Origin: Candidatus Nomurabacteria bacterium
Lineage (GTDB): Bacteria > Patescibacteriota > Minisyncoccia > Phycocordibacterales > UBA918
DNA length: 64,000 nucleotides
Assembly: GCA_023898585.1 (NCBI GenBank)
Contig: CP060229.1
Coordinates: 462,763-526,762, forward strand
Direction of reading: 5' to 3'
The position numbers were made by a program, and so were the translations under genes. This document shows positions 9,324 through 45,526 of this stretch, piece after piece; the first letter of the stretch is position 1, and every line of letters begins with the position of its first letter. The notes under the pieces were generated by a model. It did no database searches. It was not told the DNA's origin and saw nothing but the letters and a program-made list of their open reading frames with translations.

Positions 9324-9365
9324 TTCGTATATCTATTATTCGTAAGAAGATTCTAACTGAAAATT

Positions 9366-10194: not shown

Positions 10195-10200
10195 AAGTAA

Positions 10201-10233: not shown

Positions 10234-10312
10234 ACTTTACCTCTCCCCAAGCCTTAGACTCAATCAATAAAACCTTGCGTATCACGCTCGGACACATTTA
10301 GGTAATCACTTG

Positions 10313-11636: not shown

Positions 11637-12392
11637 GTGTTCTGTCAACAATGGAGAGCGGTCAAGATGAGAACTAGCACGTACGGTGATAGCGGATTCT
11701 TCAGCAGAGATATAACTTGGATTGAAACATTGCCATCTATTAAGAAATTGATGGCTATAAGATACAGTTCTGAAAAATGCTTAAACGCGGCCGGAAGAGC
11801 ATTGGTGCGAAGATGCTTTAGTAGCAAGGACGGTTTACAGACTTTTCGTGACGAAGGTTGTATGGAGCCTTTGCTCGAAGGCTTCACCCATCAGACCTGG
11901 AAAGATTTGGAAAAAGTGCAAATGTATTTACAACCAGATGAACTGGTCGTCATGTTGATCAAAGCTTTAAGAGCCCGGAAGTCGGGACTTGCGAGTATTT
12001 GTGCCGAAATTGAAGAGGTTTTTCAAAACCATCGTGATGTCGAGGTCAAACATATCTTTCAAGTGATGGAAGCTGTTCCTTCCGTCCGCAAAAGCTATTT
12101 TTGGTGGCTTCGAGGTAAGGGGCATGATATTGGTTTCCTGATATCGTGTCTTAGATTCGGTGAAGTAGCTTCAGTCACAGTTGGGGAATTGATCAAACAA
12201 AATGTTCCTCATTACCGAAAAGAATCGGTCAAAACCGAAGTGCTGGATGTTTTTAGGAATATTCCTAGGCTATCCCAAAGTACGGTTTTGATGTGGCTAC
12301 ACAATGAGAAAGTGGTTAGTCATGCGGATGTCGTAGCTTTGAAAAAGAGGTTTCATCTTACCCCACAGACCACTCGGTCGGCCGTCGCTTGA
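11637..12392 (+). CDS. hypothetical Cys-rich cytoplasmic protein immediately downstream of the sigma factor; candidate cognate regulator
   Basis: ORF only; position after an ECF-like sigma gene. Confidence 0.3.
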   Translation: MFCQQWRAVKMRTSTYGDSGFFSRDITWIETLPSIKKLMAIRYSSEKCLNAAGRALVRRCFSSKDGLQTFRDEGCMEPLLEGFTHQTWKDLEKVQMYLQPDELVVMLIKALRARKSGLASICAEIEEVFQNHRDVEVKHIFQVMEAVPSVRKSYFWWLRGKGHDIGFLISCLRFGEVASVTVGELIKQNVPHYRKESVKTEVLDVFRNIPRLSQSTVLMWLHNEKVVSHADVVALKKRFHLTPQTTRSAVA

Positions 12393-12462
12393 TAATTAAG
12401 CAAATAACCCTAAATTTTATTCCAAACTGCCCTGGCGCGTATGCTAGGGCTCTTTTTTAATC

Positions 12463-12843
12463 ATGCAACTTTTTTTACAATCGAAAAGTAATAGTAGGAG
12501 TATGGATACAAAAATAATGCAAAAGCAAATCATGCGTCGCGTGTATTATAGTTACCTGATCAGTATCGGTACACACTCGATGTTGTGGAGAGGTGTCTTT
12601 TTAGGAGCAACGGCCGTGCTCTTGGCTAAATGGTTGCACGTCGCCAGTATTTTCAATAATTTTCTTTCCGTACCGGTCGGAGCGGTGCCAAAGTATGTCG
12701 CGAATTCTTTTGTCAACGCCGCCACCCACGGGGAGATAATGACGGTTGTGACAATAGTTGCTTCGGGAATAATCGCTCTCTCGTCCGGTTTTCAGATTGT
12801 GAGGAGTCTGAATTGGCGGGGTGCGTCCATACAAGTCGCGTAA
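12463..12843 (+). CDS. hypothetical membrane protein
   Basis: Two to three hydrophobic helices; ORF ends at a strong terminator. Confidence 0.3.
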   Translation: MQLFLQSKSNSRSMDTKIMQKQIMRRVYYSYLISIGTHSMLWRGVFLGATAVLLAKWLHVASIFNNFLSVPVGAVPKYVANSFVNAATHGEIMTVVTIVASGIIALSSGFQIVRSLNWRGASIQVA

Positions 12844-12863
12844 TTCGTGGTACTTTGCGGTTT

Positions 12864-12895
12864 AAAAGAAGCCGGCCTTTAGGCCGGCTTCTTTT
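12864..12895. terminator. bidirectional hairpin AAAAGAAGCCGGCC-TTTA-GGCCGGCTTCTTTT
   Basis: Perfect inverted repeat between convergent genes. Confidence 0.75.
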
Positions 12896-12912
12896 AAACT
12901 TTTTCCCGCACT

Positions 12913-14130
12913 TTACTTCAAAGCCTCTTCCCGCATTCCTTTTCTGATGTTTTTCAACAGCTCATTTTTTAGCTTCTTGTCAGCCTGTAGTGTTTTACGC
13001 GCCGCGTCGTAACCTCGACCCAGTTTTACCATGGCTGATTCGTCCCCTCCCGGCGGAGTGTATGAGTAGGAAGAACCCGCCTTGGTGACCATCTTATACT
13101 TCTCACCAAGAGCTAACAATTCACCTTCGCCACTGATTCCTTCTCCGTAAATCAAGTCGAATTCAGTGGTGCGGAATGGGGAAGCGACTTTGTTCTTAAC
13201 CACTTTGACTCTATGTCGGCCACCTACCACCTCATCACCCTTTTTGATCTGGGCGATACGGCGAATGTCCAGTCGAACGGAAGTGTAGAATTTAAGGGCT
13301 TTTCCACCCGGAGTGGTTTCCGGATTACCGAACATAACACCGATTTGCATACGAATTTGGTTGATAAATATCACCACGGTTTTGCTTTTTGACACGATAC
13401 CAGTCAGTTTACGTAACGCCTGGCTCATTAGGCGCGCTTGCTTTCCGACGTGATGTGCTCCCATTTCGCCCTCGATTTCATCTCGTGGGGTGAGGGCAGC
13501 GACTGAATCAATTACCACCACATCAAGTTTTCCCGAGCGCACCAAGGATTCAACGATCTCCAAGGCCTGTTCCCCGTTGTCCGGCTGGGAAATCAGTAGC
13601 TCATCCAGCTTCACGCCCAAATTGCCGGCATAAACCGGGTCCATTGCGTGTTCAGCGTCAATAAAGGCACAGATACCGCCTCCTTTTTGCGCTTCAGCGA
13701 TGGCATGGAGGGCCAATGTTGTCTTACCGGAAGATTCTGGTCCGTAAATCTCTATAATCCTCCCCCTTGGGTAACCGCCGATACCGAGAGCGTCGTCCAG
13801 TCCGATAGAACCGGTTGATATTGCTTCCACGTCGACTTTTCTACTTTCGTCCAGAGTCATAATGGCGTCGTCGCCAAACTTAGTTTTTATACTGCGTAAG
13901 GTCTCTATTATTTCTTTGGAAGATTCTTTGGTGCCTTTTTTCTCGGACGGGGAAGAGGCTACCTCCTTGGTGCTTTTTCGGTCATCTTTTTCAACCTCCT
14001 TGGTGCTTTTTCGGTCATCTTTTTCAACCTCAGCTTCTTTATCTTCCTTGGTGGTTTTTTTAGGTTTTGCTGGCATATTTTTTGTTTGTGAGTGCTTATT
14101 TGGTCGGAATATATTATTCCCAATATTCAA
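12913..14130 (-). CDS. recA: RecA recombinase with a Lys/Glu-rich N-terminal extension
   Basis: [24 protein letters not shown] Walker A, full RecA core; the N-terminal extension contains a tandem repeat [11 protein letters not shown] x2. Confidence 0.9.
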
Positions 14131-14311
14131 TACTTAAAATACTTAATTTTGAAGCATATCTTATATCTATTGTGGGTATAAGTCGTCCGACCTCCAACAC
14201 TGACTGGCTAACTGATAATATTTCATTGATTATACAGGCTTTACTCGTCCCTCGCTATATGAGATATGAATGTTCTGTAATGTCACCTGATTTTCTCATG
14301 TTGACTTAATC

Positions 14312-14692
14312 TCATTTTATTTCACCGGCAAAACTGACTGGGGCGTAGACGAAACCTCTTGTCACTTTGGTTTCTCGTCCGTACCTGTCCTTGGCTCGCA
14401 AAGTGGCTACAGTGTATCCGTTTTCCAGCACCAATGCTTCATTGAATTTACCTTGAGCGTCGGTATATATCGGTCGATCATTCAGCCACAGGTGAGAAAT
14501 ATTATGAGTCCTGCCACTTAAAAAGATTTGTCGTTCATTATGCAGTAGACCGGCCTCATCGGTTAGATTGATTTGTGGCCCGATGATGATAAATCTGGCC
14601 TGGAAGGTTATGTACGTCAAGATACACAGAAAACCGATTGTTAACAAAATGAATCTGATAAAAGATTTAAAGTGGATGTTTTCTTCTATCAT
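14312..14692 (-). CDS. hypothetical membrane-anchored protein downstream of ftsK
   Basis: N-terminal TM helix followed by a beta-rich domain. Confidence 0.3.
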   Translation of the reverse strand: MIEENIHFKSFIRFILLTIGFLCILTYITFQARFIIIGPQINLTDEAGLLHNERQIFLSGRTHNISHLWLNDRPIYTDAQGKFNEALVLENGYTVATLRAKDRYGRETKVTRGFVYAPVSFAGEIK

Positions 14693-14710
14693 GCTGATCT
14701 GGTGTTTGGC

Positions 14711-16933
14711 TTAAAATCTCCGCTCAGAGGCATTTTCTTCAAAGTCGTCTTCGTCATCACCGTCTGAGTCGTGACCTCCTGCTTGTCCGCCTGTGAGAAT
14801 TTCACGAGCTTTCGAACCATCCGCTGGTCCGATCACGCCATTTTCTTCCAACAGATCCATGAGACGAGCAGCTCTTGAATACCCAACTCTCAGTTTTCGC
14901 TGTATGTATGAGGTCGAGGCCTTACCAGCTTCTATAACAGCCATTTTTGCGTCGTCATACAATTCGTCATCGCTATCGTCGTTGCCACCGATCATGGCGT
15001 TGAAGACGGAATCATTGCTGCTACCAGATTGTTCATCGAAGTTGATAGTGTCGAGCTCTTGGGCGTCTTGGTTTTTGAGGTACTCAACCACTTTCTTGAT
15101 TTCTTCTTCCGTTACATAAGCCGATTGCAGGCGAACTGGCTTGGGGCTGTCAGAAGAAAGATAGAGCATGTCACCCGCTCCAAGAAGTTTTTCGGCCCCT
15201 ACTGTATCAATGATCGTTCTGGAATCTATTTGGGAAGCAACCGCCATCGCGATACGAGTCGGCACGTTGGCTTTAATTGTACCGGTGATGACGTTAACTG
15301 ACGGTCGTTGGGTTGCCAGAACAAGGTGAATACCGACGGCTCTACTCATTTGCGCTAGTCGCACAATACAAGCCTCCAGCTCGCGGGGGTAGGCTTGCAT
15401 CAGGTCATTGAGCTCGTCAAGAATAATTACTATATATGGTAAAGCCTCAGGTAAGTTGACTCGCTCTTCCTCGCTCGACCCAGCCTCCTCCCAAGCTTTT
15501 TTAGCCGGCTGATAGGTGTTTTTGTGGTAGGAAGTGATGTTTTGCACTTGTTCAGCTTCCAGTATATCGTAACGCCTCTCCATTTCTTTTACCGCCCACG
15601 AAAGAGCCTGGATGGCTTTTTTAGCTTGAGTGATAACCGGAGTCAACAGATGGGGAATGTTGTTGTAGAGGGTGAGTTCAACTCTTTTGGGGTCAACCAA
15701 AATGAATCTGAGTTGGTCCGGGGAATTACGATAGAGGAGTGAGATGATTATGTTTTGAATAGCAACCGATTTTCCGGAACCGGTGGTACCGGCAATCAGT
15801 CCGTGAGGCATGCGAGCGATATTGGCGAAATGAACATGACCGGTCACATCTTTACCAAGAGCAACGATCAATGGGTGTGGCGAGTCAGTATACTCCGGGG
15901 TAGACAGCATAGAGGCCAGCCCGACGGTGGCGCGAGTTTGATTCGGCACCTCGATACCGACCAGTGATTTGCCGGGGATCGGAGCCTCGATTCGAATCGA
16001 GCTGGCTTTCAGTGCGAGTTGGAGCTCTTGTTGTAGTCCGGCGATTTTGGCAATTCTGACTCCTTGCGCGGGTTTTAGGGCGTAGCGGGTTATAGTTGGA
16101 CCGCTCTCGACCGCATCCATCTCCACGCTGATTCCGAATTCCCGCAAAGTTCGTTTAATGGTGTTGGCGTTAGCCTTGACATCACCAATTTGGGCCTTGC
16201 CTTTTTCCTTGTTCAGGAGATTGAGGGAAGGAGCGACGTAAGTGCCACTGAAGTTTTTAATGAAAATTTCCCCCGTTTTTGATTTGCCGAAATTGGATAT
16301 TTTTTGTGTCACGGAAGCTAGTCCGGAAGTTTCTTCATCGCTCTCTTCGTTTTCGGTATTGTCAGTGATGTCGACTGCCTTAACACCATCGCTCAGTATG
16401 TCAATAGATTCTATATCGGCGTCAACCTGCACCTCTTTCTTTTTACCAAGGAAGGGCACTTTTAAGCCGGTGTTGAAAAGGAGAAAGAGTGATATGAGAA
16501 ATAGTCCGAATATCAAAGTTCCGGTAACAGGACCACCGAGCATGGTTGAGAGTGGGGTGGAGATTATCCAGCCGACGTAACCCCCAAGATCGGGACCCTT
16601 GAGTTCGAGTGCTCCGAGCAGGGAAACGAAAAGCAGTACAGTACCGGTCACCTTTGCTCCACTTACCTCCTGGTCTTCCTCTCTCGGGTTTAATAATACA
16701 TATATGTAGAGTGCACAGATGACGGGAGCCAGCCAAGCTCCAAATCCAAAAAGTGCCACCAAGACTTTACCCATCAAGACACCGGCCGGACCAGCATAAT
16801 CGAGCAGTGAAAAAATAAAAAAAATCGCAATCACCCCCATTACCACGGCCCAAATCGCTTGTTTGGCATGAGGAGACAAATCCGCAAAGATCGGTCTTTT
16901 TTCAGTTTTGTTGTTTTGTTTCTTTCGAGCCAT
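14711..16933 (-). CDS. ftsK: DNA translocase FtsK
   Basis: N-terminal TM helices, motor domain GLIAGTTGSGKSVAIQNII, C-terminal winged-helix gamma domain; start taken at MARKKQ. Confidence 0.9.
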   Translation of the reverse strand: MARKKQNNKTEKRPIFADLSPHAKQAIWAVVMGVIAIFFIFSLLDYAGPAGVLMGKVLVALFGFGAWLAPVICALYIYVLLNPREEDQEVSGAKVTGTVLLFVSLLGALELKGPDLGGYVGWIISTPLSTMLGGPVTGTLIFGLFLISLFLLFNTGLKVPFLGKKKEVQVDADIESIDILSDGVKAVDITDNTENEESDEETSGLASVTQKISNFGKSKTGEIFIKNFSGTYVAPSLNLLNKEKGKAQIGDVKANANTIKRTLREFGISVEMDAVESGPTITRYALKPAQGVRIAKIAGLQQELQLALKASSIRIEAPIPGKSLVGIEVPNQTRATVGLASMLSTPEYTDSPHPLIVALGKDVTGHVHFANIARMPHGLIAGTTGSGKSVAIQNIIISLLYRNSPDQLRFILVDPKRVELTLYNNIPHLLTPVITQAKKAIQALSWAVKEMERRYDILEAEQVQNITSYHKNTYQPAKKAWEEAGSSEEERVNLPEALPYIVIILDELNDLMQAYPRELEACIVRLAQMSRAVGIHLVLATQRPSVNVITGTIKANVPTRIAMAVASQIDSRTIIDTVGAEKLLGAGDMLYLSSDSPKPVRLQSAYVTEEEIKKVVEYLKNQDAQELDTINFDEQSGSSNDSVFNAMIGGNDDSDDELYDDAKMAVIEAGKASTSYIQRKLRVGYSRAARLMDLLEENGVIGPADGSKAREILTGGQAGGHDSDGDDEDDFEENASERRF

Positions 16934-17125
16934 AAAATGAATTAATACCAAGGTAAAAACATACCAATAATAGCACGTGAATCGGCGCATTTCCTCTCTA
17001 CTGGAACATCAAATCGCAAAGGACAGTATTTCGGACAATACTTGCAAAGTTCAAAAATGTCTCTATAGTTATATTTACGGGACAAAGACAAAGTCTTTGA
17101 ATTTCTGTAAAGAACAAAATACAGT

Positions 17126-17866
17126 ATGCAAACAGAAAAAGACAAAGTAATACAGCTTAAAAGACTATCAGGCAATACAGACTACTATAATAATGTCTTT
17201 AAAAAGACTGAGAAAATAGTGTCCGTTATTTTTTATATTCTGTCCGAAATAAAAACAGTACCGGCAACAGAGACACACACGCAAATAATAAGAGACAGAG
17301 CATTAAAGACACACGAGCTGTCCCTTGAGACACTGACCTTTCAACCACACGAACAACATGAAGGACTGCTCCGTTTTCAATATGGTCTTGTTGGCCTTGA
17401 GAGTACGCTTCGGGTCGCTAAGACGGCCGGGGTCATACCGGAAGATATATTCATGTTGCTGGCTGATCAGACGGACTCAGTACTGCGATACATCAATAAT
17501 CATTTTTTGCAAAACGAAGGGATACCAACCGAAGAACTAACTGGCAATTTGGTAGTCGGGAGTGTCTCCAAGTCAACTCCAAAATCATCTACAGTGGCTA
17601 CTGCCAACAGACAAAGAAGGGTAAATATTCCAGCTGGGGACATAAGTACAGATGCTTACTTGGTCTATAGCCAACTGACGGACAGGGCAGAGAGAATAAA
17701 GACAGTCCTTGAAGCCAAACCTGAAGCTTCCATTAAAGACATCGCGGAGGTGATAACAGACGTGAGTGAAAAGACAATCCAGAGGGAACTAAATAGTCTT
17801 ATAGAAAAAGGACAAGTTTTGCGTGAGGGGGAGAGACGCTGGTCAAAGTATTCAGTTGTTAAGTAA
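17126..17866 (+). CDS. hypothetical protein with C-terminal winged-helix DNA-binding-like segment
   Basis: C-terminus IKDIAEVITDVSEKTIQRELNSLIEKGQVLREGERRWSKY resembles a wHTH. Confidence 0.3.
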   Translation: MQTEKDKVIQLKRLSGNTDYYNNVFKKTEKIVSVIFYILSEIKTVPATETHTQIIRDRALKTHELSLETLTFQPHEQHEGLLRFQYGLVGLESTLRVAKTAGVIPEDIFMLLADQTDSVLRYINNHFLQNEGIPTEELTGNLVVGSVSKSTPKSSTVATANRQRRVNIPAGDISTDAYLVYSQLTDRAERIKTVLEAKPEASIKDIAEVITDVSEKTIQRELNSLIEKGQVLREGERRWSKYSVVK

Positions 17867-17873
17867 TCTTACT

Positions 17874-18203
17874 TTAAGAGTCGTATGTCTCATAGATAGT
17901 GACTCTGAGAATTCTTTTTACAGACAGAAAAGTTTTGCTGAGATTTTTATAGTACAGTGTTGTCTCAAGAAAAAATGGTGCCTTGAGCCTGTCTAATCCA
18001 TCTGGCTGAAGGACGTTCCTATAAACTTGGTCATCGTTCAAGTTTTTTGCTGATTCCTCCGTTTGCAAAATTGTTTTTTTTGTTACATAGTTTGCAGTGG
18101 CTCGTAAGAAGAGGCAGGGCTTATCGTCATCAATGAGAGACAGGAGATAGTGTATTTTTTGGCCTATAATTCTCACGGAAATTTTGGATAGTTGCGTGTT
18201 CAT
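17874..18203 (-). CDS. hypothetical protein
   Basis: ORF only. Confidence 0.25.
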   Translation of the reverse strand: MNTQLSKISVRIIGQKIHYLLSLIDDDKPCLFLRATANYVTKKTILQTEESAKNLNDDQVYRNVLQPDGLDRLKAPFFLETTLYYKNLSKTFLSVKRILRVTIYETYDS

Positions 18204-18650
18204 AACACCACGTATCCACAACCTGTGAACTCCACGAATTACCAAAAGATGTTATTATCTTCATGTGCGCTGGTGCGCTTTTTTTCTAAGTCTTTTCCAT
18301 GCTTTGTGCGGAACACAAGTGCGCGTGAGGACAGCAGAAATGCACCGGAGTTATGAATGTTCTTTGACAACCTTACGAATGTAAGAATCACATGGCAGAG
18401 TGACTATGTGATCATATTTGAAAAATTACCGCCTGACCTTATCCTTTTTATTTTTCTGATAATTCAAGATACTCGGATGGAATTCGCAGCTAACCTCCAC
18501 ATCTTCGGATGTGAAGTTAGTGATATTCGGTAAGTGACTTGATAACTCACTTACTAAATATGAATTAATTCATATTATTAGATATATCAAGTAACGCCTC
18601 TCAAAAGAGGCACGCGTAGTAATTACGCACAATTACAGTTAATTTTAGTT

Positions 18651-20693
18651 ATGACTCAAACAAACAGTATTGTCTCAAAGCTCGTTGTAGCTTTTGTGGC
18701 AGTTGCTATGGTCTTCTCGTCTTTCGCTGCATCAGCAAGCGCACAGACCACAGAAGAATTGCAACAAATGATCAATGACTTGCTGGCACAAGTTGCAGCC
18801 CTCCAAACACAAGCTGGACAGGGTTCAATGTCTTCAGCCAGCGTATGTCCTTACACTTGGACACGTGACCTTACACAAGGTGCAAGTGGAGCAGATGTAA
18901 AGATGCTTCAACAGTTCCTAAACGCTGACGCTGATACACGAGTAGCAGCCGAAGGTGCAGGTTCAGTTGGAATGGAAACAGAATTTTACGGTCCTGCAAC
19001 AGCAGCCGCTGTTTCTAAACTACAAGTAAAGTATCGTTCAGATATTCTTTCACCAGCTAACTTGGTTAATCCAACCGGTTACTTCGGTCCTTCATCACGA
19101 GCTAAGGCAAACATGCTTTGCGCAAGCGCTCCTTCAGTTGATGACGAAGAAGAAATGACTGACGATGAGGAAGAAGAACAGGATGACTCATCAGTGACTC
19201 TCGGTGGCGAAGCTTCACTCAACAAGTTTGAAGTGGCTGACGCTGACGATGACACCGTTCAGGAAGGCGACGAGGACGTTGCTATCGGTATCTTCACCGT
19301 AGAATTCAAAGATGGAGATGCTGAGATTTCACGTATTGACATCGCTCTTGAATCAGCTGGAGGTGGAACTGACGATGAGCAAGATCCGTGGGACACTTTT
19401 GACACCGTTTCACTTTGGGTAGATGGTGACAAAGTTGCTGAAGAAGATGCTAATAGCCGTCGTAGTGACTACCTAGATGACGCTGATGGTTCAATCCGTT
19501 TCTCCGGTCTTGACATCGTAGCAATGGAAGACGAAGAAGTAGAAATCACCGTAGCTGCTTCATTGCAGACCGGTATGGATGACGGATCTGACGGTGAGGA
19601 TTGGAAGCTTCGCGCTGGTGCTCTTCGTTACTTCGACGCCGATGGTGTAGCTACTACCGAAGGTTCACAAGGTGATCTAGAAGATGATTACTCAGGTCCT
19701 TCAGCAGACTTCACTATCAACGAAGCTGGTTCTGATGATGAGCTTATTGCTAAGACTTCATCAAACGACCCAGATTCAGATACCTTCAAAACTGAAACTG
19801 ACAAGAAGTCAGACTGGTACACAGTATTCGTGTTTGACCTTGATACCGACGATTCAGCTAACGACATCACTATTAACGAGATCGTGCTTAACGTAGCTAC
19901 CACCGGTACTACTTATTCAAATCTTGTTGATGATGCTGAACTCGTGATTGATGGTACTACCATTGACGACGTAGACGTTGTTGCAACCGGCAATGAAGCA
20001 GTGCTCACCTTCAATGTTGATGGTGATGTAACTATCGACGCTGGTGACCGTGTTGAAGCAGAACTTATGCTTCGATTCAAGTCAATGTCAAACTCAGCTT
20101 ACGAAGGTTCAACTGTTCAAGGTTCTATCGACTCTCTAACTACATCAATTGTAGACGCTGAGGGTGCTGATGACCTTGGAAATGGTCAACTTTCAGGTGC
20201 TGCTACTGGTGAAGTACACACTCTCCGAACCTCTGGTATCGAAGTGTCTGTTGACTCAACCAGCGCAGAAGTTACTGTAGTAACCGATCCTGACAACGAC
20301 TATGGTACATTCGAGATCAGTCTTGATGTAACAGCGTTTGAACAGGATGTCTTCATTCCAATCAGCTCAGCTTCAACTTCATGGAAGTTGGTTGACGCTA
20401 ATGGAGCAACCATCTTGTCTACCGATACTGCATCTACTACTGTAGTTATCTCTTCATCAGCTGAAGAAGGTGGCGCAGGTGATGCTTTCTACCAAATCAA
20501 TGATGGTGAGACTGAAACAGTCACAATTACTGTTACCTACACACCAGGAAATGTGACTCCAAAGTCAGCTCGCTTGCAACTCGTATCACTCGTATTTGAC
20601 GAGACCGGTACAGCTGTGAAGACTGATGACAGTACTTGGAACGCACTTCCAGCTAACACCTTCCGTACTGACGTTAAGACCATCCAAGACTAA
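18651..20693 (+). CDS. abundant-looking secreted cell-surface protein with a PG_binding_1-like peptidoglycan-binding domain, acidic linker and Thr/Ser/Asp-rich beta region; S-layer-like candidate
   Basis: Signal peptide; CPYTWTRDLTQGASGADVKMLQQFLNADADTR...YGPATAAAVSKLQ (PG-binding fold); DDEEEMTDDEEEEQDD; codon usage biased to GCT/GGT/GAC/TTC; 400-bp hairpin-rich leader; strong terminator. Confidence 0.55.
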   Translation: MTQTNSIVSKLVVAFVAVAMVFSSFAASASAQTTEELQQMINDLLAQVAALQTQAGQGSMSSASVCPYTWTRDLTQGASGADVKMLQQFLNADADTRVAAEGAGSVGMETEFYGPATAAAVSKLQVKYRSDILSPANLVNPTGYFGPSSRAKANMLCASAPSVDDEEEMTDDEEEEQDDSSVTLGGEASLNKFEVADADDDTVQEGDEDVAIGIFTVEFKDGDAEISRIDIALESAGGGTDDEQDPWDTFDTVSLWVDGDKVAEEDANSRRSDYLDDADGSIRFSGLDIVAMEDEEVEITVAASLQTGMDDGSDGEDWKLRAGALRYFDADGVATTEGSQGDLEDDYSGPSADFTINEAGSDDELIAKTSSNDPDSDTFKTETDKKSDWYTVFVFDLDTDDSANDITINEIVLNVATTGTTYSNLVDDAELVIDGTTIDDVDVVATGNEAVLTFNVDGDVTIDAGDRVEAELMLRFKSMSNSAYEGSTVQGSIDSLTTSIVDAEGADDLGNGQLSGAATGEVHTLRTSGIEVSVDSTSAEVTVVTDPDNDYGTFEISLDVTAFEQDVFIPISSASTSWKLVDANGATILSTDTASTTVVISSSAEEGGAGDAFYQINDGETETVTITVTYTPGNVTPKSARLQLVSLVFDETGTAVKTDDSTWNALPANTFRTDVKTIQD

Positions 20694-20742
20694 TCTCTTG
20701 GTAGGTAAGAGACCAGAACGGCTAGCTTAGCTATAAGACAGA

Positions 20743-20768
20743 CAAAACCCCGCTTCGGCGGGGTTTTG
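20743..20768. terminator. hairpin AAAACCCCGC-TTCG-GCGGGGTTTT after the surface protein gene
   Basis: Perfect inverted repeat with U-tract. Confidence 0.75.
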
Positions 20769-20793
20769 TCGTCTCTGAAAAAAGAAAACACCT

Positions 20794-20871
20794 CCAGCCC
20801 TAGGTCTTGCCTAGGGCTGGTAGCGGTTAATCATGAAAATACCAACAAGACTCCCTAGGCAAGACCTGGGG
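20794..20871. repeat. pair of REP-like hairpins in inverted orientation (CCAGCCCTAGG-TCTTG-CCTAGGGCTGG and CCCTAGG-CAAGA-CCTGGGG) directly upstream of the RAYT-like gene
   Basis: Both hairpins read from the sequence; loop TCTTG in one and its complement CAAGA in the other. Confidence 0.5.
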
Positions 20872-20876
20872 TTTTT

Positions 20877-21617
20877 GTGTTAATACGAATTCAGTGTCAC
20901 AAAGAAGTTACAATTTTGTACCCGGTGAATTCTACCACTTGTATAATCAGTGGTACTGATAAAAGAACCATCTTTCAGAGTTCTGATGATTATAAAAGAT
21001 TTCAGGACTCGCTTTATTTATCGAACACGCGTGAGAATATTAACGTTAGAGACAGGTTAAAGGGAGTTTGTAATCCTTACAGCATAGAGCGTAACAATCC
21101 GCTTGTTGCGATCGGTACGTATTGTTTAATGCCTAATCATTTTCATTTACTAGCAACACCACTTTATGAAAATGGGGTAAGTTTGTTTTTACAAAAGCTA
21201 TTAACGAGCTACTCAATGTATTTCAATCAAAAGTACGAAAGAACCGGAGGATTGTTTGAGGGAAAATTCAAATCACAATTAGCTGATGATGGGTACTTAA
21301 AATATTTATTTTCATATATCCATCTTAATCCCGTGAAACTGATCCAGTCCGATTGGAAAGAACGAGGTGTCGAATATGTTGATGTTTCTTATGATTTTGT
21401 TTCTGACTACCAACATTCAAGCTTGCCAGCTTATTTGGGGGTGGACAGACCCGAAAATAAAATTTTGGACAAGCAAGCTTTTCCAAATTATTCCAATGAT
21501 TACGAAGACATAAAAACCGAACTATTTGAGTGGTTGAAGTATAAAAACAATGAAAATGACTTGTTGGGGGCAAATGTTCCAAGGGTTGCTATTGGAGCAT
21601 ACTACTCGGTAGCTTGA
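20877..21617 (+). mobile_element. REP-associated tyrosine transposase (RAYT) / IS200-like Y1 transposase homologue
   Basis: HxH motif in CLMPNHFHLLATP; catalytic Tyr context YIHLNPVKL; N-terminal IFQSSDDYKRFQDSL resembles the IFxDDEDRxRFLELL region of Y1 transposases. Confidence 0.6.
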
Positions 21618-21672
21618 GAGAGCATATCATTTTGATTTTGTCTGGTATAATATTCATATAAGCATTCACGAC

Positions 21673-21828
21673 ATGAATCAAAAGGAGCATTATTCACAAC
21701 CGAAAATACCGGTACCGATTTCGCAAAAAATTCTCAACAAGACTTTTTACCGTTTTTTCTTTAGTTTCATTGCAGTTATTGCCGGAGTGCTCTTGCTTAT
21801 TCTGGTCGTCGGGGTAGGAGGTGGGTTA
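21673..21828 (+). CDS. possible 51-aa small membrane protein (not in the supplied ORF track)
   Basis: ATG preceded by AAGGAG-like purine tract is part of the ORF itself; translates to MNQKEHYSQPKIPVPISQKILNKTFYRFFFSFIAVIAGVLLLILVVGVGGGL; TTGATT-17-TATAAT promoter-like at 21632-21660. Confidence 0.25.
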
Positions 21829-22327
21829 TAATTGGTTTGTTATGTTGCGTATCACGGATCAGTATTTTTGGAATTTATTTTTCCTGATCTTTTTCTTAGT
21901 CCTTGTAGTGATGGGTTCTATTATACTAGAGACAGAAGCCAGGATTCCTCTCGCCGATTTGGGTTTGACCGATTATGTCCTCATAACTCTCGCTTCTTGG
22001 CGACTTACACGACTTTTTGTCTATGATGTCGTCACAAGATGGTTCCGGGAGCAATTTTGGGACGTGAAGAAGATAGGTAAGGGTCACCGTCTTGAAAAAC
22101 CAAAAACTGGACCGCGTCGCACCTTGGCGGACTTGCTCGATTGTCCTTGGTGCTTTGGTGTTTGGGCAACAGCAACGGTTGTCTTTTTCTATCTTATAAC
22201 TCCCTATGCGGTATTCCCGGTAATCGTTTTAGCGTTGTCTAGTGTGGCAACTTTCCTACAGCTTGTAGCCAATATGGTTGGACATAAAGCAGAACAACTG
22301 AAAAATCAAAATGAATCAATAACATAA
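21821..22327 (+). CDS. integral membrane protein, DUF1360-like (CPWC motif)
   Basis: Four predicted TM helices; DLLDCPWCFGVWATA motif. Confidence 0.4.
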   Translation: MGYNWFVMLRITDQYFWNLFFLIFFLVLVVMGSIILETEARIPLADLGLTDYVLITLASWRLTRLFVYDVVTRWFREQFWDVKKIGKGHRLEKPKTGPRRTLADLLDCPWCFGVWATATVVFFYLITPYAVFPVIVLALSSVATFLQLVANMVGHKAEQLKNQNESIT

Positions 22328-22711
22328 GAGATCTGGCTACTTGTGCACACAGTAAGTGTGGTTTTGCCGGGAAATATATTTTGTCGGGATGCAGAGTGAG
22401 AAAATGCGGGGCATTTTCGCAAGACTCATTGAGAATTTTTGCAAAGATATGAGCAAAAATCCAATGAGTGGACAGCCTCTGTAAGAGGGCGAACTCGGGC
22501 CACACCCCTTAGGGTCTCGAATGTCTCCAAGACATCCGGTAAAAAACAGAGTCGGGCTAGGTAGTTGTAACTGTCTGGGAGACAGTTACAAAACTGCCAG
22601 CACATTCTTTCAGGTCGACAGTCTCCCAGACTTCAAGGAAATTCTGGTAGTGGTAACCGGAATTGAAAAATCATTTATAAAAAGTCTCCCAGAAGTTCGA
22701 AAAATCCAAAG

Positions 22712-22782
22712 TCGGGCCGCCGAGAATCGAACTCGGACCACACCCACCCCATGGGCGCACACTACCACTATGCTACGGCCCG
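22712..22782 (-). tRNA. tRNA-Pro (anticodon GGG)
   Basis: Folds as acceptor CGGGCCG/CGGCCCG (C1-G72, as in bacterial tRNA-Pro), D-arm GCAT..GTGT, anticodon stem CGCCC/GGGTG, loop AUGGGGU (U33, anticodon GGG, G37), T-arm CCGAG-TTCGATT-CTCGG, discriminator A. Confidence 0.7.
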
Positions 22783-22899
22783 ACTTTGTATTTTTCCCAA
22801 CAGGGCAAATACTACCACTACACCCCGAATAATCACAGTATAAACAATCTAAATCAGCTTGAAAAGGTTGTATGCTGAGATCACAAACAGCCTTTACTT

Positions 22900-23105
22900 T
22901 TCCCGACCATCTGTTAAATTATTCTCCAACAGGCTCATGACAGCTGGTTTCTGAACGTAAAGGTTCAGAAGTAATGAATCGTTTGATTCGCCCGCCGAGG
23001 TCCACTATCTATTTTTGATACTGGAGGTCGAAGCCTAGGGTGGGAAAAACACTTCGTGTTTTTCCCACCGTGGGCCTGTAAATTTAATCACGTAAACAAA
23101 TAACA
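22900..23105 (+). promoter_or_regulatory. probable L10 (rplJ) leader / autoregulatory 5' UTR
   Basis: Structured region with hairpin GGGAAAAACAC-TTCG-GTGTTTTTCCC directly upstream of rplJ. Confidence 0.35.
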
Positions 23106-23107
23106 AC

Positions 23108-23596
23108 GTGGCAATTACAAAAACAAAAAAGGAGTCAATTCTCACTAAACTAGATGGCGTAAAAAACGACTCGGAGTCAATCGTGTTTGTTAAATTCAAC
23201 GGCATGACTGTTGATAACACGACAGCTATGCGGTCGGAGTTGAGAAGCAATGGTGTAGGTTTTTATGTCGCCAAGAAAACCCTCATGAAGCGCACCTTCG
23301 GAGGAGTGTTTGAAGGGAAAATGCCAGAGCTTGAAGGTGAGATTGCGTTAGCGTACAGTAAAGACGCAATTGCTCCTGCGCAGAAGATAAAAGAATTCGC
23401 AGGCAAATACAAAGATAATTTGGAGATTGTCGGTGGCGTATTCCAAGGTGTCTTTAAAAATGCCGGGGAAATGACCGAAATCGCTTTGATTCCACCATTG
23501 CCGGTACTAAGAGGTATGTTTGTAAACGTTATCAATTCACCAATCCAAGGTTTGGTATTGGGGCTAAATGCTATCGCCGACAAGAAGTCTGCATAG
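23108..23596 (+). CDS. rplJ: ribosomal protein L10
   Basis: N-terminus AITKTKKESILTKLDGV..., L10 length, followed by rplL. Confidence 0.9.
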   Translation: MAITKTKKESILTKLDGVKNDSESIVFVKFNGMTVDNTTAMRSELRSNGVGFYVAKKTLMKRTFGGVFEGKMPELEGEIALAYSKDAIAPAQKIKEFAGKYKDNLEIVGGVFQGVFKNAGEMTEIALIPPLPVLRGMFVNVINSPIQGLVLGLNAIADKKSA

Positions 23597-23612
23597 TTAA
23601 TTAAAAAATATC

Positions 23613-24137
23613 ATGAGTGATGAAAAAGAAACAAAGGTAGCGGATACTACCGAAGAAACTGCAGCTCAAGAAGTGGCAGAAGAAACCAAAGAAGAGAAGA
23701 AAGAAGAAGCGAAAATAGAAGAGAAGGCAGAGGAGAAAGCTTCTGACGTTGACGAATCAATTGAGGTGCCGGAACAATTTAAGGCGCTCATTGATCAAGT
23801 AGAGAAAATGTCAGTACTTGAACTACATGAACTCGTCAAGGTTTTGGAAAAAAGATTCGGAGTATCAGCTTCAGCTGTGGCTGTCGCTGCTCCGGCCGGT
23901 GGAGCTGATGCTTCCGCCGAAGAACAATCAGAGTTTACCGTTGAGCTGACTGAAGCCGGAGGACAGAAAATCGCCGTCATTAAGGCTGTGAAAGAAATTC
24001 TCGGACTGGGTCTTAAAGAAGCAAAAGACATGGTAGACGGAGCTCCTGCTATCTTGAAGGAGAATGTGAAGAAAGAAGACGCGGAGGCCATGAAGGCAAA
24101 GTTTGAAGAGGCTGGCGCTACCGTAACTTTGAAATAA
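23613..24137 (+). CDS. rplL: ribosomal protein L7/L12 with a roughly 50-aa acidic/Lys-rich N-terminal extension (alternative start at 23809)
   Basis: [32 protein letters not shown] hinge and C-terminal domain [32 protein letters not shown]. Confidence 0.9.
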
Positions 24138-24149
24138 GTTTTGTAGACC

Positions 24150-24190
24150 ATAAACAAAAAGCGCAGGCTTGTCCTGGCGCTTTTTGTTTT
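24150..24190 (+). terminator. rho-independent terminator after rplL
   Basis: AAAAAGCGCAGG..CCTGGCGCTTTTTGTTTT. Confidence 0.6.
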
Positions 24191-24577
24191 GGCAAAAAAC
24201 TTTCAAAGTTACGGTAGAGGCGCAGCGATGTGAGGAGTGGCTTTAGCCCGCCACGACGAACCAGTGGTAAAACAGTCTGGGAGACTGCTTTACGGCCCGC
24301 GAGCACTTAGTAGAATTGGAGCGAAGCGAACGATTATACTTAGTGACTTGTGGGACTGTTACGATCTCTGATATGAACTCGATGTCCATAATCAGAGGTA
24401 TTAAAAAGGAGGACTTGTGACGGAGCGAAAGTGCTTTCAAATTATTTATTCACACACTTTTTTCGATGTCTGCTTTGCGCCCCGTGTCAATCTTAAAACA
24501 TTTGCAGTTAAGTTGATTATGCTTTATAAATGAGCGGGCGAGTTTTTTTGTGTAAGTCAATCTGGAGCTGATTATTA

Positions 24578-24985: not shown

Positions 24986-25010
24986 ACTTCATTACCGACA
25001 ATCGGCAATC

Positions 25011-25230
25011 ATCTTTAATCACCCGCCACTTCGAACATGGCGGGCTTTTCTTTACTAGTTTGTCGCAGAACGCCCCGAGCTCTTAGCTCGGGGATGAATG
25101 CGACGTTAAACTAGTGCCGGCGGAGCCGGCTCCATAGCTAGCAAAAATCCCCGTGAAAAGTAACCCCGTTACTTTTCACCTATGCCGAAGGCACAGTGGC
25201 AAACGCCCTGTGCTCTTGGCACAGGGATTT
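25011..25230. repeat. cluster of five distinct perfect hairpins in one intergenic region (stems 6-12 bp)
   Basis: CCCGCCA/TGGCGGG; CCCCGAGC-TCTTA-GCTCGGGG; GCCGGC-GGA-GCCGGC; GTGAAAAGTAAC-CCC-GTTACTTTTCAC; CCCTGTGC-TCTTG-GCACAGGG. Confidence 0.6.
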
Positions 25231-25304
25231 TTACCTCAATCACGACATTTGGCGCTCACACTGTCTACTGAAATCTCATGCTATAATCTCGACACATTTT
25301 CAGT

Positions 25305-27723: not shown

Positions 27724-29138
27724 ATTACCATCTTTACCCGAGGTAATAGTGATAATTTAATCTAAATCTGTTAGTCTCCAATGACCAACTTACTTATCCG
27801 GAACTGGTGCTTGACTTTAATTTCTTTTTCTATAGAATAGCCATCACGTATTTATGAGTTTTGAGAAAAGAACACTTTCGTAGCAAGAAATTTCGCAGAT
27901 TGCGATTTAACTTGCCGCGAGATTGCGGTTTTTTCTTTCAAAATTCAAAGGGATGCGGGTTGTTTGACAATTCCCATGACCGAGCGTCACGCGACCAAAT
28001 GTGCGAACACTTTGTGTTCATTATTTGGTTGCATGACCGAGCGAATGGGGATTGTATGGCTTGACCATACAATCGCATATTCATTAAGGACAGGTTGATA
28101 AGACCTGTCCCAAAAAGTCCTACGGCGACATTGTTTTCTTGTGAGCGAATGCGAACTAGAAAACGAGAAGTGCCTTGTGGTAAATCGACGTCGTCGTAGG
28201 CAACCCCCGCATAAAGCTAGAATCGACGCTAGCGCGGGGGAGTAGGTAAAAAAGTGTGTCGGGTTAAGAGTTTGTCCAATCGGACAGGTCTTTTCGTCCT
28301 CGACACGCTAAACACAAAGATCGTAGATTTTCCTAAGGAAAAATCTACGATCAGTCCGGAGTATGTATCTCCGGACAACACTCAAAAAATTGTGCAGCGG
28401 TGCACAGCGTTTTTGTGAGGAGCATGTCATCAGCGAAATCTGGCGACGGACCTTACTTTCGAGCGAGCGAGTGAAATGGAAGTAGCCATCAGGCCATTTA
28501 CATTTCCGAGCGAGCGAAGAAAGCAAGGAACGTTATACAGAAACGCAGTTGATGTATAACGTTCCTTACAGGAACAAAGGGTGTATGGTGGATGCCTTGG
28601 CTTCAAGAAGCGATGAAGGACGTGATATGGCTGCGATAAGTTTCGGGGAGGTGCCAAATAACCTTTGATCCGGAAATGTCCCAATGGGGAAACCCTACTA
28701 CTTTCAGTAGTAACCCTTGTATGAGGGGGCGTACCTAGGGAAGTGAAACATCTCAGTACCTAGAGGAATAGAAAGCAATAGACGGAAATTTCTTTTTGAG
28801 CGGATGCTTTGCATCAGCTCATTGAGCATGGTGCTTTGCGCCATTACGCTCAAGAAGAAGGTTCTTGCGATTCCCGGAGTAGCGGCGAGCGAAAGGGGAA
28901 TAGCCCAAATCCTGCACCTTTTAAGGTGCAGGAGGTTGTAGGGCGGAATCTGCATTTAGTTGCAGAGAGTTACAAAACAGATATATAGGAAAACACGTTG
29001 GGAAGCGTGACCCCAGTAGGTAATAGTCCTGTATTCGAAATGTATCTGACTCTCTTGGTTCCGTTCCTGAGTAGCGCGGGACATGAATAGCCCGTGTGAA
29101 TCCACCAGTACTAACTGGTAAGGCTAAATATTCTTGAA

Positions 29139-29184
<46 letters not shown>

Positions 29185-29949
29185 GGAGAGGGGAGTGAAA
29201 TAGATCTGAAACCATACATCTACAAGGAGTCGGACCCAGCTCCAGATTCGTAATCTGAATCAACGGGCTTTATAAGATCAACCGCAGTTGTTTTATAGAG
29301 CAAAGTTGTGAAAATCGTGAATCTGGAGCTGGGGACGGCGTGCCTATTGAAGAATGAGCCGGCGAGTGTATATCTATGCTTTGTCTAAGTGGCAATCCCA
29401 CGGAGGCACAGTGAAAGCGAGCGTGAATAGCGCGAATATAGCGTAGGTATACGACCCGAAGCGGGAAGAGCTTGCCATGAGCAGGGTGAAGCGACTGTAA
29501 TAGGTCGTGGAGGCCCGAACCGGTTGGCCGTACAAAACCATCGGATGACTTGTGGTAAGGAGTGAAAAGCTAATCGATTTCCGTAATAGCTGGTTCTCTC
29601 CGAAACAGCTTTAGGGTTGGCGTCGTGTGTTTCCTACGGGGGTAGAGCACTGGAAGGTCAAAATAGGGGGAAACTTCGTTTGACCTATCAAACTCCGAAT
29701 ACCGTTAGGCCACAGCACGGCAGTTAGACTACGGGGGAGAAGCTCCGTTGGTCAAAAGGGAAACAGCCCAGATCGCCAGTTAAGGTCCCAAAATATATGC
29801 TCAGTGCAAAATGAGGAGGTGAGGATTCACAAACAGTGAGGAGGTTGGCTTAGAAGCAGCCATCCTTTAAAGATAGCGTAATAGCTCACTCATCGAGAGT
29901 CCTTGCGCCGAAAATGATCGGGGCTCAAGCATATTACCGAAACTGCGGA

Positions 29950-30332
29950 TTCGTAGGCTTCATTTAGGAAAAGTTTATGTCCAAGGGGACAGTTTGATGG
30001 TCGTCAGAGTCCGCTCGCGCAGCGGAACAGCGTACGACCACAGCTGCCCACCAAGCATGCAAAAACAGTAAAGATGTCTCCTGAGGCGAGCGCCACCTGG
30101 CGCGTTAGTGACGGGCACTGCGCAGACTGTTAACATTGCATACTTTTCGTCGGGAGTGTTCGAAAGAACCCCCTTGGACTCCCGTTCTTTTACGTCGAGA
30201 CAATTTTGGTCCCCGGTAGCTTAGTTGGCAGAGTAGCTGAATGCAAATCAGTGAACACTGGTTCGACTACAGTCCGGGGAACCAAAATTGTCTCACGTAC
30301 CATTTCAAACAAGCGTTTGAATCCTAAATGAA
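29950..30332 (+). other. intervening sequence (about 345 nt) inserted in the apical loop of 23S helix 45, closed by a 20-bp stem (UUCGUAGGCUUCAUUUAGGA / UCCUAAAUGAAGCCUACGAG)
   Basis: Flanks align to E. coli H45 (GCGGCAGCGACGC..GCGUUGUUGGGUAGGGGAGCGU); the interior has no 23S homology. Confidence 0.7.
30210..30284 (+). ncRNA. tRNA-like cloverleaf (anticodon-loop GCA, encoded ACCA 3' end) embedded inside the helix-45 insertion, carried on a 21-bp extended stem
   Basis: UCCCCGG acceptor/CCGGGGA, D-arm GCUU..AGUUGGCAGAGU, anticodon stem GCUGA/UCAGU with loop AUGCAAA, T-loop UUCGACU but G53-A61 mismatch; flanked by GAGACAAUUUUGG / CCAAAAUUGUCUC. Confidence 0.45.
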
Positions 30333-30865
30333 GCCTACGAGTGGTAGGAGAGCGTCCATCTCTGCGATGAATCCAAGGCGGGAGCCGCGGTGGAGCGAGG
30401 TGGAGTGAGAATGCCGGCACAAGTAACCGCAAGGCAGGTGAGAACCCTGCCCGCCGAAATACCAAGGTTTCCTTTGCGATGGTGATCATCGAAGGGTTAG
30501 TCGGTCCTAAGGGAATCCCGAATGGGGGACCCGATGGAGAGCAGGTTAATATTCCTGCACACTGTTATGTTCCTATGGAGGGACGGAGCGTTGTACCCAA
30601 AGCTTCTTATTGGATTGGAGCTGGAGCTATGAGCGTGTTACTTAGGTAAATCCGGGTAGCAATAGCGCGAGTAGGGTCTGAATGTGAGCCTTCGGGTGAG
30701 CAAATAAGGGGAGCACGCTTCCGAGAAAAACTTCGTTTGGGTTAAGCATAATGGTTCCGTACCGCAAACCGACACAGGTGGTAGAGTCGAGAAGACTAAG
30801 GCGAACGAGTGAGAGGTCCTCAAGGAACTCGGCAAAATAGCGGCCGTAACTTCGGGATAAGGCCC

Positions 30866-31174
30866 GCCAGCCCTAGATTTGGGGTATGATAGTTGAATGC
30901 ACGCTGTGTACGTGATTCAAAACAATGAGACTAAAGAAGTCTATATTGGTCGTACTGCCAATCTCAAAACAAGACTGGTTGAACACAATTCGCGCGGTAA
31001 GAAAAGCACCACGCGCAATAGTGGCAGCTGGAAGTATATTTATGTTGAACTTTTTCGAAGTACTGATGATGCTATTGAGCGCGAAAAGAAGCTCAAAGCG
31101 CACGGTAGTGGTAAACAAAAGTTGATGTCACGACTTCGAAAAAGCTTGTTTTGAGCCCCAAATCTAGGGCTGGC
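30866..31174 (+). other. 23S helix (E. coli about 1710-1750 region) expanded by a 271-nt loop that consists almost exactly of a GIY-YIG ORF
   Basis: Stem GCCAGCCCUAGAUUUGGGG / CCCCAAAUCUAGGGCUGGC; the ORF starts 12 nt after the stem and stops 1 nt before it. Confidence 0.65.
30897..31154 (+). CDS. small GIY-YIG nuclease-domain protein encoded inside 23S rRNA
   Basis: VYVIQNNETKEVYIGRTANLKTRLVEHN (GIY..YIG, Arg, Glu); 85 aa; paralogue at 54231-54500. Confidence 0.6.
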   Translation: MHAVYVIQNNETKEVYIGRTANLKTRLVEHNSRGKKSTTRNSGSWKYIYVELFRSTDDAIEREKKLKAHGSGKQKLMSRLRKSLF

Positions 31175-31366
31175 CGCAGCGAAAGATTTCCTGCCGACTG
31201 TTTAACAAAAACACAGCTCTCTGCTAACACGAAAGTGGATGTATAGAGGGTGACGCCTGACCTATGCCGGAAGGTTAAGTACGGATGGTGATATGAGATT
31301 CGTCTTGTATTGCTGGGCTGTATAAGCCCCGGTAAATGTCAGCGATAACTATAATCGTTCTAAGGT

Positions 31367-45525: not shown

Positions 45526-45526
45526 C

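Follow-up and report, generated by a model that had tools for sequence, protein, structure and literature searches.

A RAYT-like Y1 gene and its REP-like hairpins in a Candidatus Nomurabacteria genome: a likely REPtron-like unit, probably in decay

A stretch of 64,000 nucleotides from a Candidatus Nomurabacteria genome (contig CP060229.1, positions 462,763 to 526,762; "the window" below means this whole stretch) contains an open reading frame (ORF) resembling a REP-associated tyrosine transposase (RAYT; REP, repetitive extragenic palindrome), directly preceded by two hairpins in opposite orientation. This raises the question of whether gene and hairpins belong together and whether they could form an active REP-proliferating system, as a first-pass annotation of this DNA had proposed. 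Our analysis suggests that the locus is likely to be a REPtron-like unit, in which a single-copy, chromosomally fixed gene for a RAYT-like Y1/HUH protein, a predicted nuclease-ligase of single-stranded DNA, is accompanied by its cognate REP-like hairpins. In this genome the system is probably inactive or decaying. We read it as decayed rather than active because the gene is frameshifted, there are only two cognate hairpin copies in 64 kb, and on the downstream side the hairpin has either degenerated or gone. The proposal of an active system in this genome was therefore not borne out, the gene being frameshifted and further cognate copies being absent from the 64 kb.

The ORF (20877..21617, + strand) has a 246-aa product which carries the two motifs on which it had been annotated as a RAYT-like Y1 transposase, MPNHFHLL (HFH at 21138-21146) and YIHLNPVKL (Y at 21315). 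The Pfam profile PF01797 (Y1_Tnp), which had been suggested as a check, gives it 27.3 bits (27.6 in a second scoring) against a gathering score of 23, and the Pfam scan found no Bac_DnaA_C or helix-turn-helix domain in the protein. The HUH motif NHFH (residues 81-84) and the Tyr motif YIHLNP (residues 141-146) are invariant in both of our protein alignments (A1 and A2), and their catalytic residues are unvarying across more than 100 sequences. The invariant residues of the alignments are H15, Y17, N18, R19, G20, N81, H82, H84, Y141, N145 and P146, and a conserved C-terminal extension of ~70 aa contains Y-S-S-L. More than 7,900 homologs were scored, most of them ~220 aa long, and those with a source name are from Kaiserbacteria, Nomurabacteria or Paceibacterota and are labelled 'transposase' or 'RayT'. 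In a profile search of 1.84 billion representatives the family comprises 1,061 clusters (50% identity) at E<=1e-30 and 14,152 at E<=1e-10.

The evidence on the fold comes from a model of the closest intact homolog, P0002, which is 60% identical, rather than from the window protein itself. The AlphaFold2 model of P0002 (pLDDT 88.6, pTM 0.87) has 4er8_A as its top Foldseek match in the PDB (E = 1.8e-6, TM 0.65 on target), followed by the IS608, ISDra2 and IS200 TnpA proteins at ~1e-3, and the Foldseek probability is 1.00 for each of 4er8, 2a6m, 2xma and 2f4f. This PDB entry, 4ER8, is the REP-associated tyrosine transposase of E. coli in complex with a REP hairpin. The motifs, the profile score and the fold support the identification of the window protein as a Y1/HUH enzyme of the RAYT type (class 2, Y---NP). 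A tblastn search with the repaired protein found neither a second Y1 gene nor a relic of one anywhere in the window; this covers the stretch past rplL, where the syntenic Nomurabacteria genome described below carries an IS200. At another locus of the family (loci are numbered L below), L174, a second, diverged Y1 paralog lies at 9986-10240, ~6 kb from the first.

The hairpins upstream of the gene are the following.

20794..20820, + strand: H1, a REP-like hairpin, CCAGCCCTAGG-TCTTG-CCTAGGGCTGG, with a perfect 11-bp stem and its core at 20798-20816.
20853..20871, - strand: H2, an inverted copy of the core, CCCTAGG-CAAGA-CCTGGGG on the + strand; the minus strand reads CCCCAGGTCTTGCCTAGGG.
20794..20871, no strand: a REPIN-like inverted doublet consisting of H1, a 32-nt spacer and H2.

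The two oppositely oriented hairpins described in the first-pass annotation are thus confirmed. Apart from one mismatch (T.G / C.A in the stem), H2 and the H1 core are reverse complements of each other, and the 19-nt cores lie in inverted orientation 23-100 nt upstream of the Y1 gene. Both hairpins resemble intrinsic terminators, H1 when read on the minus strand and H2 on the plus strand; H2 is followed by TTTTTGTG, and the upstream gene has its own terminator at 20741-20770. When the stretch 20780-20895 is folded as single-stranded DNA, H1 pairs with H2 in one long hairpin (-22.4 kcal/mol, z = -4.8), and none of 200 shuffles folds as well. With up to 3 mismatches allowed, the 64 kb contain the 19-mer core exactly two times, where shuffles lead one to expect 0.01, and hairpins with a TCTTR or TCTTT loop (or its complement) occur four times in the window against 0.6 in shuffles (maximum 3). 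These counts indicate that the hairpins described here are not due to chance.

The pairing of gene and hairpin recurs in relatives. In a survey of the flanks at 80 metagenome loci (35-56% protein identity, a match being defined by the top 6 bp of the stem), 71 loci were testable, and in 43 of them the same locus-specific hairpin lies on both flanks of the gene, whereas the 138 control positions, displaced within these loci, gave no such case. The hairpin sequence varies between loci with the ..RGG(N) / (N)CCY.. stem top and a 3-5-nt loop kept, and the stems stay perfectly complementary, which suggests that the structure is what is conserved. The flanking copies (n = 46) are inverted at 25 loci, have the same orientation at 14 and differ in the loop at 7. 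In the complete Nomurabacteria genome of L006, which is syntenic and has 54% protein identity, the hairpin CAAACCTACCCCGAGG-TCTTT-CCTCGGGGTAGGTTTG ends ~25 nt before the start codon and a second GC hairpin is located past the stop codon of the Y1 gene, while in L002-L005 the hairpin GACCTAGGG-TTA-CCCTAGGTC flanks the gene on either side. At L206, the locus of the closest homolog, the upstream hairpin core is identical to the H1 core of the window, and the downstream end is an inverted doublet whose first arm is identical to H2, mismatch included. A cognate hairpin also lies in frame inside the Y1 gene at 10 of 48 loci, mostly at residues 52-68, before the HUH motif (L133, L164, L184, L195 and others), and in L015 at 1221-1239, just after the HUH motif. 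Together these patterns support the view that the upstream hairpins of the window are cognate REP-like elements of the Y1 gene. Many of the C-terminal tails predicted for proteins of the family (LGKT, SLGKTWG, PRQDL...) are, moreover, translations of the downstream hairpin.

Only the upstream side (H1 and H2) of the class 2 REPtron layout is intact in the window. On the downstream side there is a single candidate.

21561..21600, + strand: possible decayed downstream hairpin doublet (weak evidence, from the alignment of the ORF tail to L206).

In L206 the inverted hairpin doublet encodes the ORF tail of the protein (P0002), SLGKTWGRVALGLA. The window tail, LLGANVPRVAIGAYYSVA, can be aligned with that tail, and the DNA that encodes the window tail no longer folds into hairpins, so that the tail may be what is left of a downstream doublet.

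The same hairpin core is also found away from the gene. When 185,579 species genomes were scanned for CCCNAGGTCTTKCCTNGGG, at least 119 stretches matched, the core pattern being CCCNAGG-TCTTK-CCTNGGG. Among the matches listed, ~55 are single matches in unrelated phyla, which is roughly the chance level. The others are concentrated in a small number of genomes, among them 9 copies within 8 kb in Patescibacteria UBA661, several of them as head-to-head doublets, 8 contigs with the core in the Paceibacterota genome GL93_UP_metabat_156, and 4 core copies in one Nomurabacteria metagenome-assembled genome (MAG). Head-to-head doublets of the core occur in UBA661 (L079, L017) and in L206, with spacers of 4-32 nt. 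The genome GL93_UP_metabat_156 carries the gene as well, preceded there by 2 core copies and followed by a cluster of 4 or more, and in genomes of Zambryskibacteria, Minisyncoccia and other Paceibacterota the core directly brackets the gene. The H1 core of the window is identical to these multi-copy hairpins of other Patescibacteria. Most of the core copies checked in loci of the candidate phyla radiation (CPR) are intergenic (38/42). The metagenome loci contain 12 extra locus-specific copies more than 200 nt from the gene in 211 kb, or ~1 extra copy per 18 kb, which by extrapolation gives tens per genome, not hundreds. From copy to copy the inner core is constant and the outer stem changes yet remains complementary; no copy has a GT[AG]G foot. 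The hairpins are also present without the gene (UBA661 L079; L048). Read from the sequences, then, the hairpins have been copied to other intergenic sites in relatives.

The gene itself, by contrast with an insertion sequence (IS), keeps its chromosomal position. Its neighbours, a 680-aa surface-type protein, DUF1360 and rplJ-rplL, are kept at 42-60% protein identity at no fewer than 12 loci (L006, L107, L126, L127, L133, L141, L146, L156, L172, L178, L181 and L206). Two close pairs of loci are collinear over their whole length, L130 and L132 over 10 kb, and in close pairs the divergence of the Y1 gene is about that of its neighbours. There is one copy of the Y1 gene in the window. These comparisons indicate that the Y1 gene is low-copy and vertically inherited. 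L006 also has a classical IS200 after rplL (9080-9630), with end hairpins CCCCGYATGCTTGTCATCGGGG in direct orientation and a TnpA (9127-9588) of 153 aa with the motifs DHVH and YVKNQ; the window has no trace of this element.

The copy of the gene in the window is disrupted, as the following features show.

20894..20950, + strand: 5' segment of the Y1 gene, with a GTG start and codons 1-19 (VSQRSYNFVPGEFYHLYNQ), in a frame that differs from that of the remainder (three-frame translation).
20949, + strand: extra A, which turns CGT (invariant Arg19 of YNRG) into CAGT, a +1 frameshift.
20952..21617, + strand: remainder of the Y1 gene, residues 20-240 and the stop, with NHFH, YIHLNP at 21315-21332 and the YSSL serine motif.

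Three-frame translation gives ...VSQRSYNFVPGEFYHLYNQWY followed by a stop in one frame and GTDKRTIFQ... onward in the next, and a tblastn search of the window with the repaired protein returns two matches in different frames. The N-terminus of intact homologs reads MSQRxYNFVxGEFYHxYNRGTDKR (for example MSQRKYNFVEGEFYHIYNRG and MSQRKYNFVEGEFYHIYNRGTDKRTIFQ). Deleting the A at 20949 restores ...YHLYNRGTDKRTIF... / YNRGTDKR, that is, the family consensus with Arg19 and Gly20, and we therefore conclude that the real gene runs from the GTG at 20894 to 21617 and contains a +1 frameshift. The frameshift takes away the invariant H15, Y17, N18 and R19 of the YHxYNRG motif in the N-terminal segment. The corresponding GenBank protein (P0001), a 230-aa 'transposase [Candidatus Kaiserbacteria bacterium]', begins at a false GTG downstream of the shift. 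Programmed frameshifting was considered and judged unlikely: the site lacks a slippery sequence, and if the frame were shifted at the TGA further downstream, other residues would stand in place of the invariant Arg-Gly. Another family member, L105 (1458-2115), is likewise split into two frames, near residue 36, which suggests that disrupted copies may be common.

An intact unit may work by analogy with TnpA-REP of E. coli and TnpA of IS608, in which case its enzyme would bind the folded hairpin on single-stranded DNA. It would cut beside the hairpin through a 5'-phosphotyrosine at Tyr141 (YIHLNP), with the metal held by His82 and His84 (NHFH), and rejoining of the ends would multiply or move the hairpins and not the gene. 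Across the family, two GC-rich hairpins bracket the gene; their stem top (..RGG / CCY..) and short loop are constant within one genome and differ from genome to genome, and additional hairpin copies are found in intergenic DNA and sometimes in frame within the Y1 gene.

Several points weigh against this reading of the locus. We infer cleavage and mobilisation by the family only from the analogy just given. In the window the two cognate copies both lie beside the gene and are not dispersed, and no further cognate copy was found in the 64 kb, even at 3 mismatches or 1 stem mismatch. A GTAG or GTGG foot was not found beside H1, H2, the L206 copies or the L079 copies. With the NCBIfam equivalog NF047646 (REP_Tyr_transpos) the window protein scores 30.5 bits, far below the cut-off of 80. 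A PDB sequence search with the family profile gave at best ISDra2 TnpA at E ~0.9, with no significant match to 4ER8; it was uninformative, and the fold search described above was used instead. Covariation between protein and hairpin is modest, protein identity being 56% for pairs of loci that share a hairpin and 49% for other pairs. The frameshift rests on one assembly and may be a sequencing error. It is also present in NCBI contig JAGQMH010000054.1, which is 100% identical to window 12382-24156 (11.8 kb) and hence gives no independent confirmation. The long ORFs nearby (up to 1,027 aa) are unbroken, which argues against a generally error-prone assembly. The initial interpretation of the locus as a RAYT/REP system is accordingly upheld in the RAYT type of the Y1 protein, the cognate hairpins, their dispersal in relatives and the 4ER8-like fold; the lack of a GT[AG]G foot and the low NF047646 score speak against it.

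Other explanations of the locus can be weighed on the same evidence. The gene might encode a domesticated protein that binds the hairpins in a host function, such as control of its own transcription or the processing of single-stranded DNA or RNA at these sites, without mobilising or copying them; the hairpins would then be terminators, mRNA-stabilising structures or an operator. We regard this as improbable, though several observations favour it. The gene is long-lived and syntenic, the hairpin copies per genome are few, and only 10-45 nt separate the end of the upstream hairpin from the start codon; in L102 and L105 this hairpin stands directly before a TGGTATAAT-type -10 box. H1, H2 and the hairpin at 25206, described below, are also terminator-like. 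A regulatory role of the hairpins, alone or in addition, is therefore possible. The invariance of the HUH and Tyr residues nevertheless argues for a retained nuclease chemistry, and identical hairpins at unrelated intergenic sites, in tandem or inverted clusters and in frame in genes require a copying process.

It is still less probable that the locus is an old, dead copy of an autonomous IS200/IS605-like insertion sequence, of which the gene and two hairpins (~0.8 kb) would move together. The layout of hairpin, gene and hairpin does recall the left and right ends of IS200, and both hairpins have the same orientation at 14/46 loci; some genomes have a second paralog (L174), and in DPANN archaea the same core forms the left end of true IS200 elements (see below). 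Such an element would hardly leave neighbourhoods kept at 42-60% protein identity, collinear close pairs and one copy only in the window. The inverted hairpins at 25/46 loci lie on opposite strands and are incompatible with single-strand excision of the IS200 type, and in the real IS200 of L006 the hairpins at the two ends are directly oriented. Instead of Y---Q the Tyr motif reads Y---NP, the protein is ~220 rather than ~150 aa long (PMC6006769, Table 1), and hairpins occur without the gene (L079, L048). Finally, the hairpins might be ordinary terminators of adjoining genes that have nothing to do with the Y1 gene. The upstream gene does end nearby, and H1 and H2 fit the terminator consensus. 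That gene is already terminated at 20741-20770, however, a pair of the 19-mer is expected only 0.01 times by chance, and hairpins on both flanks at 43/71 loci of relatives against 0/138 controls make a coincidence very hard to credit.

How does a REPtron-like unit of this kind compare with known systems? It resembles that of E. coli TnpA-REP (RayT/YafM; REP/BIME; 4ER8), its best structural match, in the Y1/HUH fold and the Y---NP motif, in a single-copy gene bracketed by cognate palindromic hairpins, often inverted (a REPtron), and in hairpins that are extragenic and repeated. It differs in that identity is 16% in the structural alignment, in that the proteins here have ~220 aa with the ~70-aa conserved C-terminal extension, and in that the hairpins of the family lack the 5' GT[AG]G foot and number, by extrapolation, tens rather than hundreds. 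The GT[AG]G foot defines canonical REPs, and Y---NP is the signature of class 2 TnpAY1 (PMC6006769). We assign the RAYT-like protein to class 2 TnpAY1 and find it closest by motifs to subclass 2.1, for which the published motifs are NH[YF]H, FQ/WE and Y[IV]HLNP, with a median length of 238 aa and an SS tail domain (PMC6006769, Table 1). Here the corresponding features are NHFH, LFEG or LFQG, YIHLNP, YSSL in the proximal tail, ~220-240 aa and low copy number; this fit was obtained by inspecting the motifs of alignment A1 against Table 1 and not with the authors' hidden Markov models. Subclass 2.1 is group 1 of Bertels and probably corresponds to the TIRYTs. In subclass 2.1 REP-like sequences were found by neither automatic nor manual searches (Quentin et al. 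2018, PMC6006769), whereas the family described here is consistently flanked by hairpins, and this is its main departure from the published description. Non-IS tnpAY1 genes, that is, RAYTs and their relatives, predominate in larger genomes (PMC6006769).

Subclass 2.4 (Bertels group 4; Cyanobacteria and Bacteroidetes) likewise has REP copies in frame inside tnpA, but its motifs are NH[IFV]H / WQ / YIxNNP and its REPs carry GT[AG]G feet, and the insertions in our family are mostly before the HUH motif, at residues 52-68. The REPIN/RAYT system of Pseudomonas fluorescens (Bertels and Rainey) is similar in that two inverted REPs form one long hairpin and the gene is vertically inherited and single-copy. 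It is dissimilar in that each REP here is a perfect palindrome and the doublet spacers are 4-32 nt, and no REPIN population is seen here, as the 64-kb window has no other doublet or single copy. With the IS200/IS605 family (IS200, IS608, ISDra2) the common feature is a Y1/HUH enzyme that recognises subterminal hairpins on single-stranded DNA; the differences here are the syntenic position, the inverted hairpins, the Y---NP motif, the longer protein and the lack of a tnpB partner.

The hairpin type is not confined to the CPR bacteria. In DPANN archaea the core occurs within AATAC-CCCAAGGTCTTGCCTTGGG-GATAAAGC, 37-44 nt before classical IS200 TnpA ORFs (Y1_Tnp 109 bits), and this position identifies it as the left-end subterminal hairpin of these elements. 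The core CCCRAGGTCTTGCCTYGGG is present in L040, L070 and ~20 other DPANN loci (Pacearchaeota, Woesearchaeota, Nanoarchaeota), often at contig ends. In the Bacillota MAG Emb289P3bin92 (WQYM01 loci) the core lies at the right end of an element present in at least 13 copies. Y1 enzymes as distant as those of CPR bacteria, of DPANN archaea and of Bacillota therefore use one hairpin type.

Two further hairpins of the window had been described, at 25068-25094 and 25203-25228, as being of the same stem-loop style.

25073..25093, + strand: loosely similar hairpin, CCCCGAGC-TCTTA-GCTCGGGG; membership uncertain.
25206..25226, + strand: loosely similar hairpin, CCCTGTGC-TCTTG-GCACAGGG followed by ATTTTT, terminator-like; membership uncertain.

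Both exist and have the loop and ends described, but the sequences do not support their membership of the same family: they have only the TCTTR loop and the CCC/GGG ends in common with H1 and H2 and lack the AGG/CCT stem top of the family. They may be diverged relatives or unrelated terminators. At gathering and E-value thresholds, Rfam has no family on any of the hairpins or across 24.1-25.3 kb. This region includes ~400 nt of non-coding DNA after the rplL terminator (24160-24570), and a 300-nt intergenic stretch, 24990-25300, holds six hairpins; neither matches an Rfam family. An apparent inverted REP pair at 58015 and 59670 was rejected, as its members are the terminators of two paralogous genes. 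These terminators (58015-58043 and 59670-59694) are exact reverse complements over 21 nt (GGTCGGCGC-TCT-GCGCCGACC against ...AGA...), with a flipped loop on the same stem, and the genes before them (56735-58006 and 58095-59663) are paralogs in tandem on the same strand.

Some features of the window stand apart from the Y1 locus. The most abundant repeat is a palindromic element of ~100 nt, resembling a miniature inverted-repeat transposable element, with three intergenic copies (42877-43063, 45524-45621 and 63071-63171) and the arms TCTAGAGCATGTCCGAAAACCCT / AGGGTTTTTGGACATGCTCCAGA; one copy lies directly after tRNA-Ile, two are inverted around a 2.6-kb two-gene segment, and there is no similarity to the Y1 hairpins. 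A 23S rRNA match at 28565-32289 is 3.7 kb long against a model of 2.9 kb. Inside it lies a tRNA-Cys(GCA)-like sequence (30210-30284) with flanks that form a 29-nt inverted repeat (30197-30225 / 30266-30294), and after it two ORFs for LAGLIDADG endonucleases (32389-32883 and 33299-33778). A 29-nt, 97% complementary stem (28546-28574 / 34159-34187) encloses the 23S match and the LAGLIDADG ORFs, which suggests that the 23S gene is intron-containing and that its true 3' end lies near 34.16 kb. Unlinked to the 23S gene, the 16S gene lies ~26 kb away, at 60416-62009. An exact 33-nt tandem duplication, ACCTCCTTGGTGCTTTTTCGGTCATCTTTTTCA (two copies), is found at 13961-14026 inside the ORF 12913..14130 (- strand).

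The first-pass annotation had remarked that RAYT/REP systems are not commonly described in ultra-small genomes. This agrees with our literature search, which found, among the papers covered, none linking REP or RAYT with Patescibacteria or CPR; a 2026 preprint noted only K07491 hits in Nanobdellota, and automated annotation already calls some members of the family 'RayT'. The initial interpretation is thus partly supported: a unit of gene and hairpins recurs consistently across many ultra-small genomes, and we read it as a probable RAYT/REP-like system whose REPs are atypical and whose protein fits by its motifs a subclass reported to be REP-free. More tentatively, and with rather more doubt than confidence, we suggest a reading of the large family as a whole, which is widespread in Paceibacteria and further Patescibacteria and has 1,000 or more clusters at 50% identity. 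It may be a Y1 nuclease that was domesticated, is inherited vertically together with its cognate hairpins and has been kept in some of the smallest and most streamlined bacterial genomes; it would belong to a subclass reported to be REP-free and share its hairpin type with the IS200 of DPANN archaea.

There are practical consequences for annotation, as the hairpins add spurious C-terminal tails to predicted proteins and GenBank annotates the window gene as an intact 230-aa 'transposase' from a false start codon. With few, countable hairpins, in-frame insertions and a fixed position, these loci offer a compact natural system for testing the role of a RAYT-like enzyme and its retention by the host. 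If the more tentative reading of the family is correct, symbioses of the REP/RAYT kind would not be confined to large genomes, and the shared hairpin would hint at exchange between CPR bacteria and DPANN archaea. The persistence of such a system under extreme genome reduction would then suggest a benefit to the host, for example the creation of terminators or the handling of single-stranded DNA at the replication fork.

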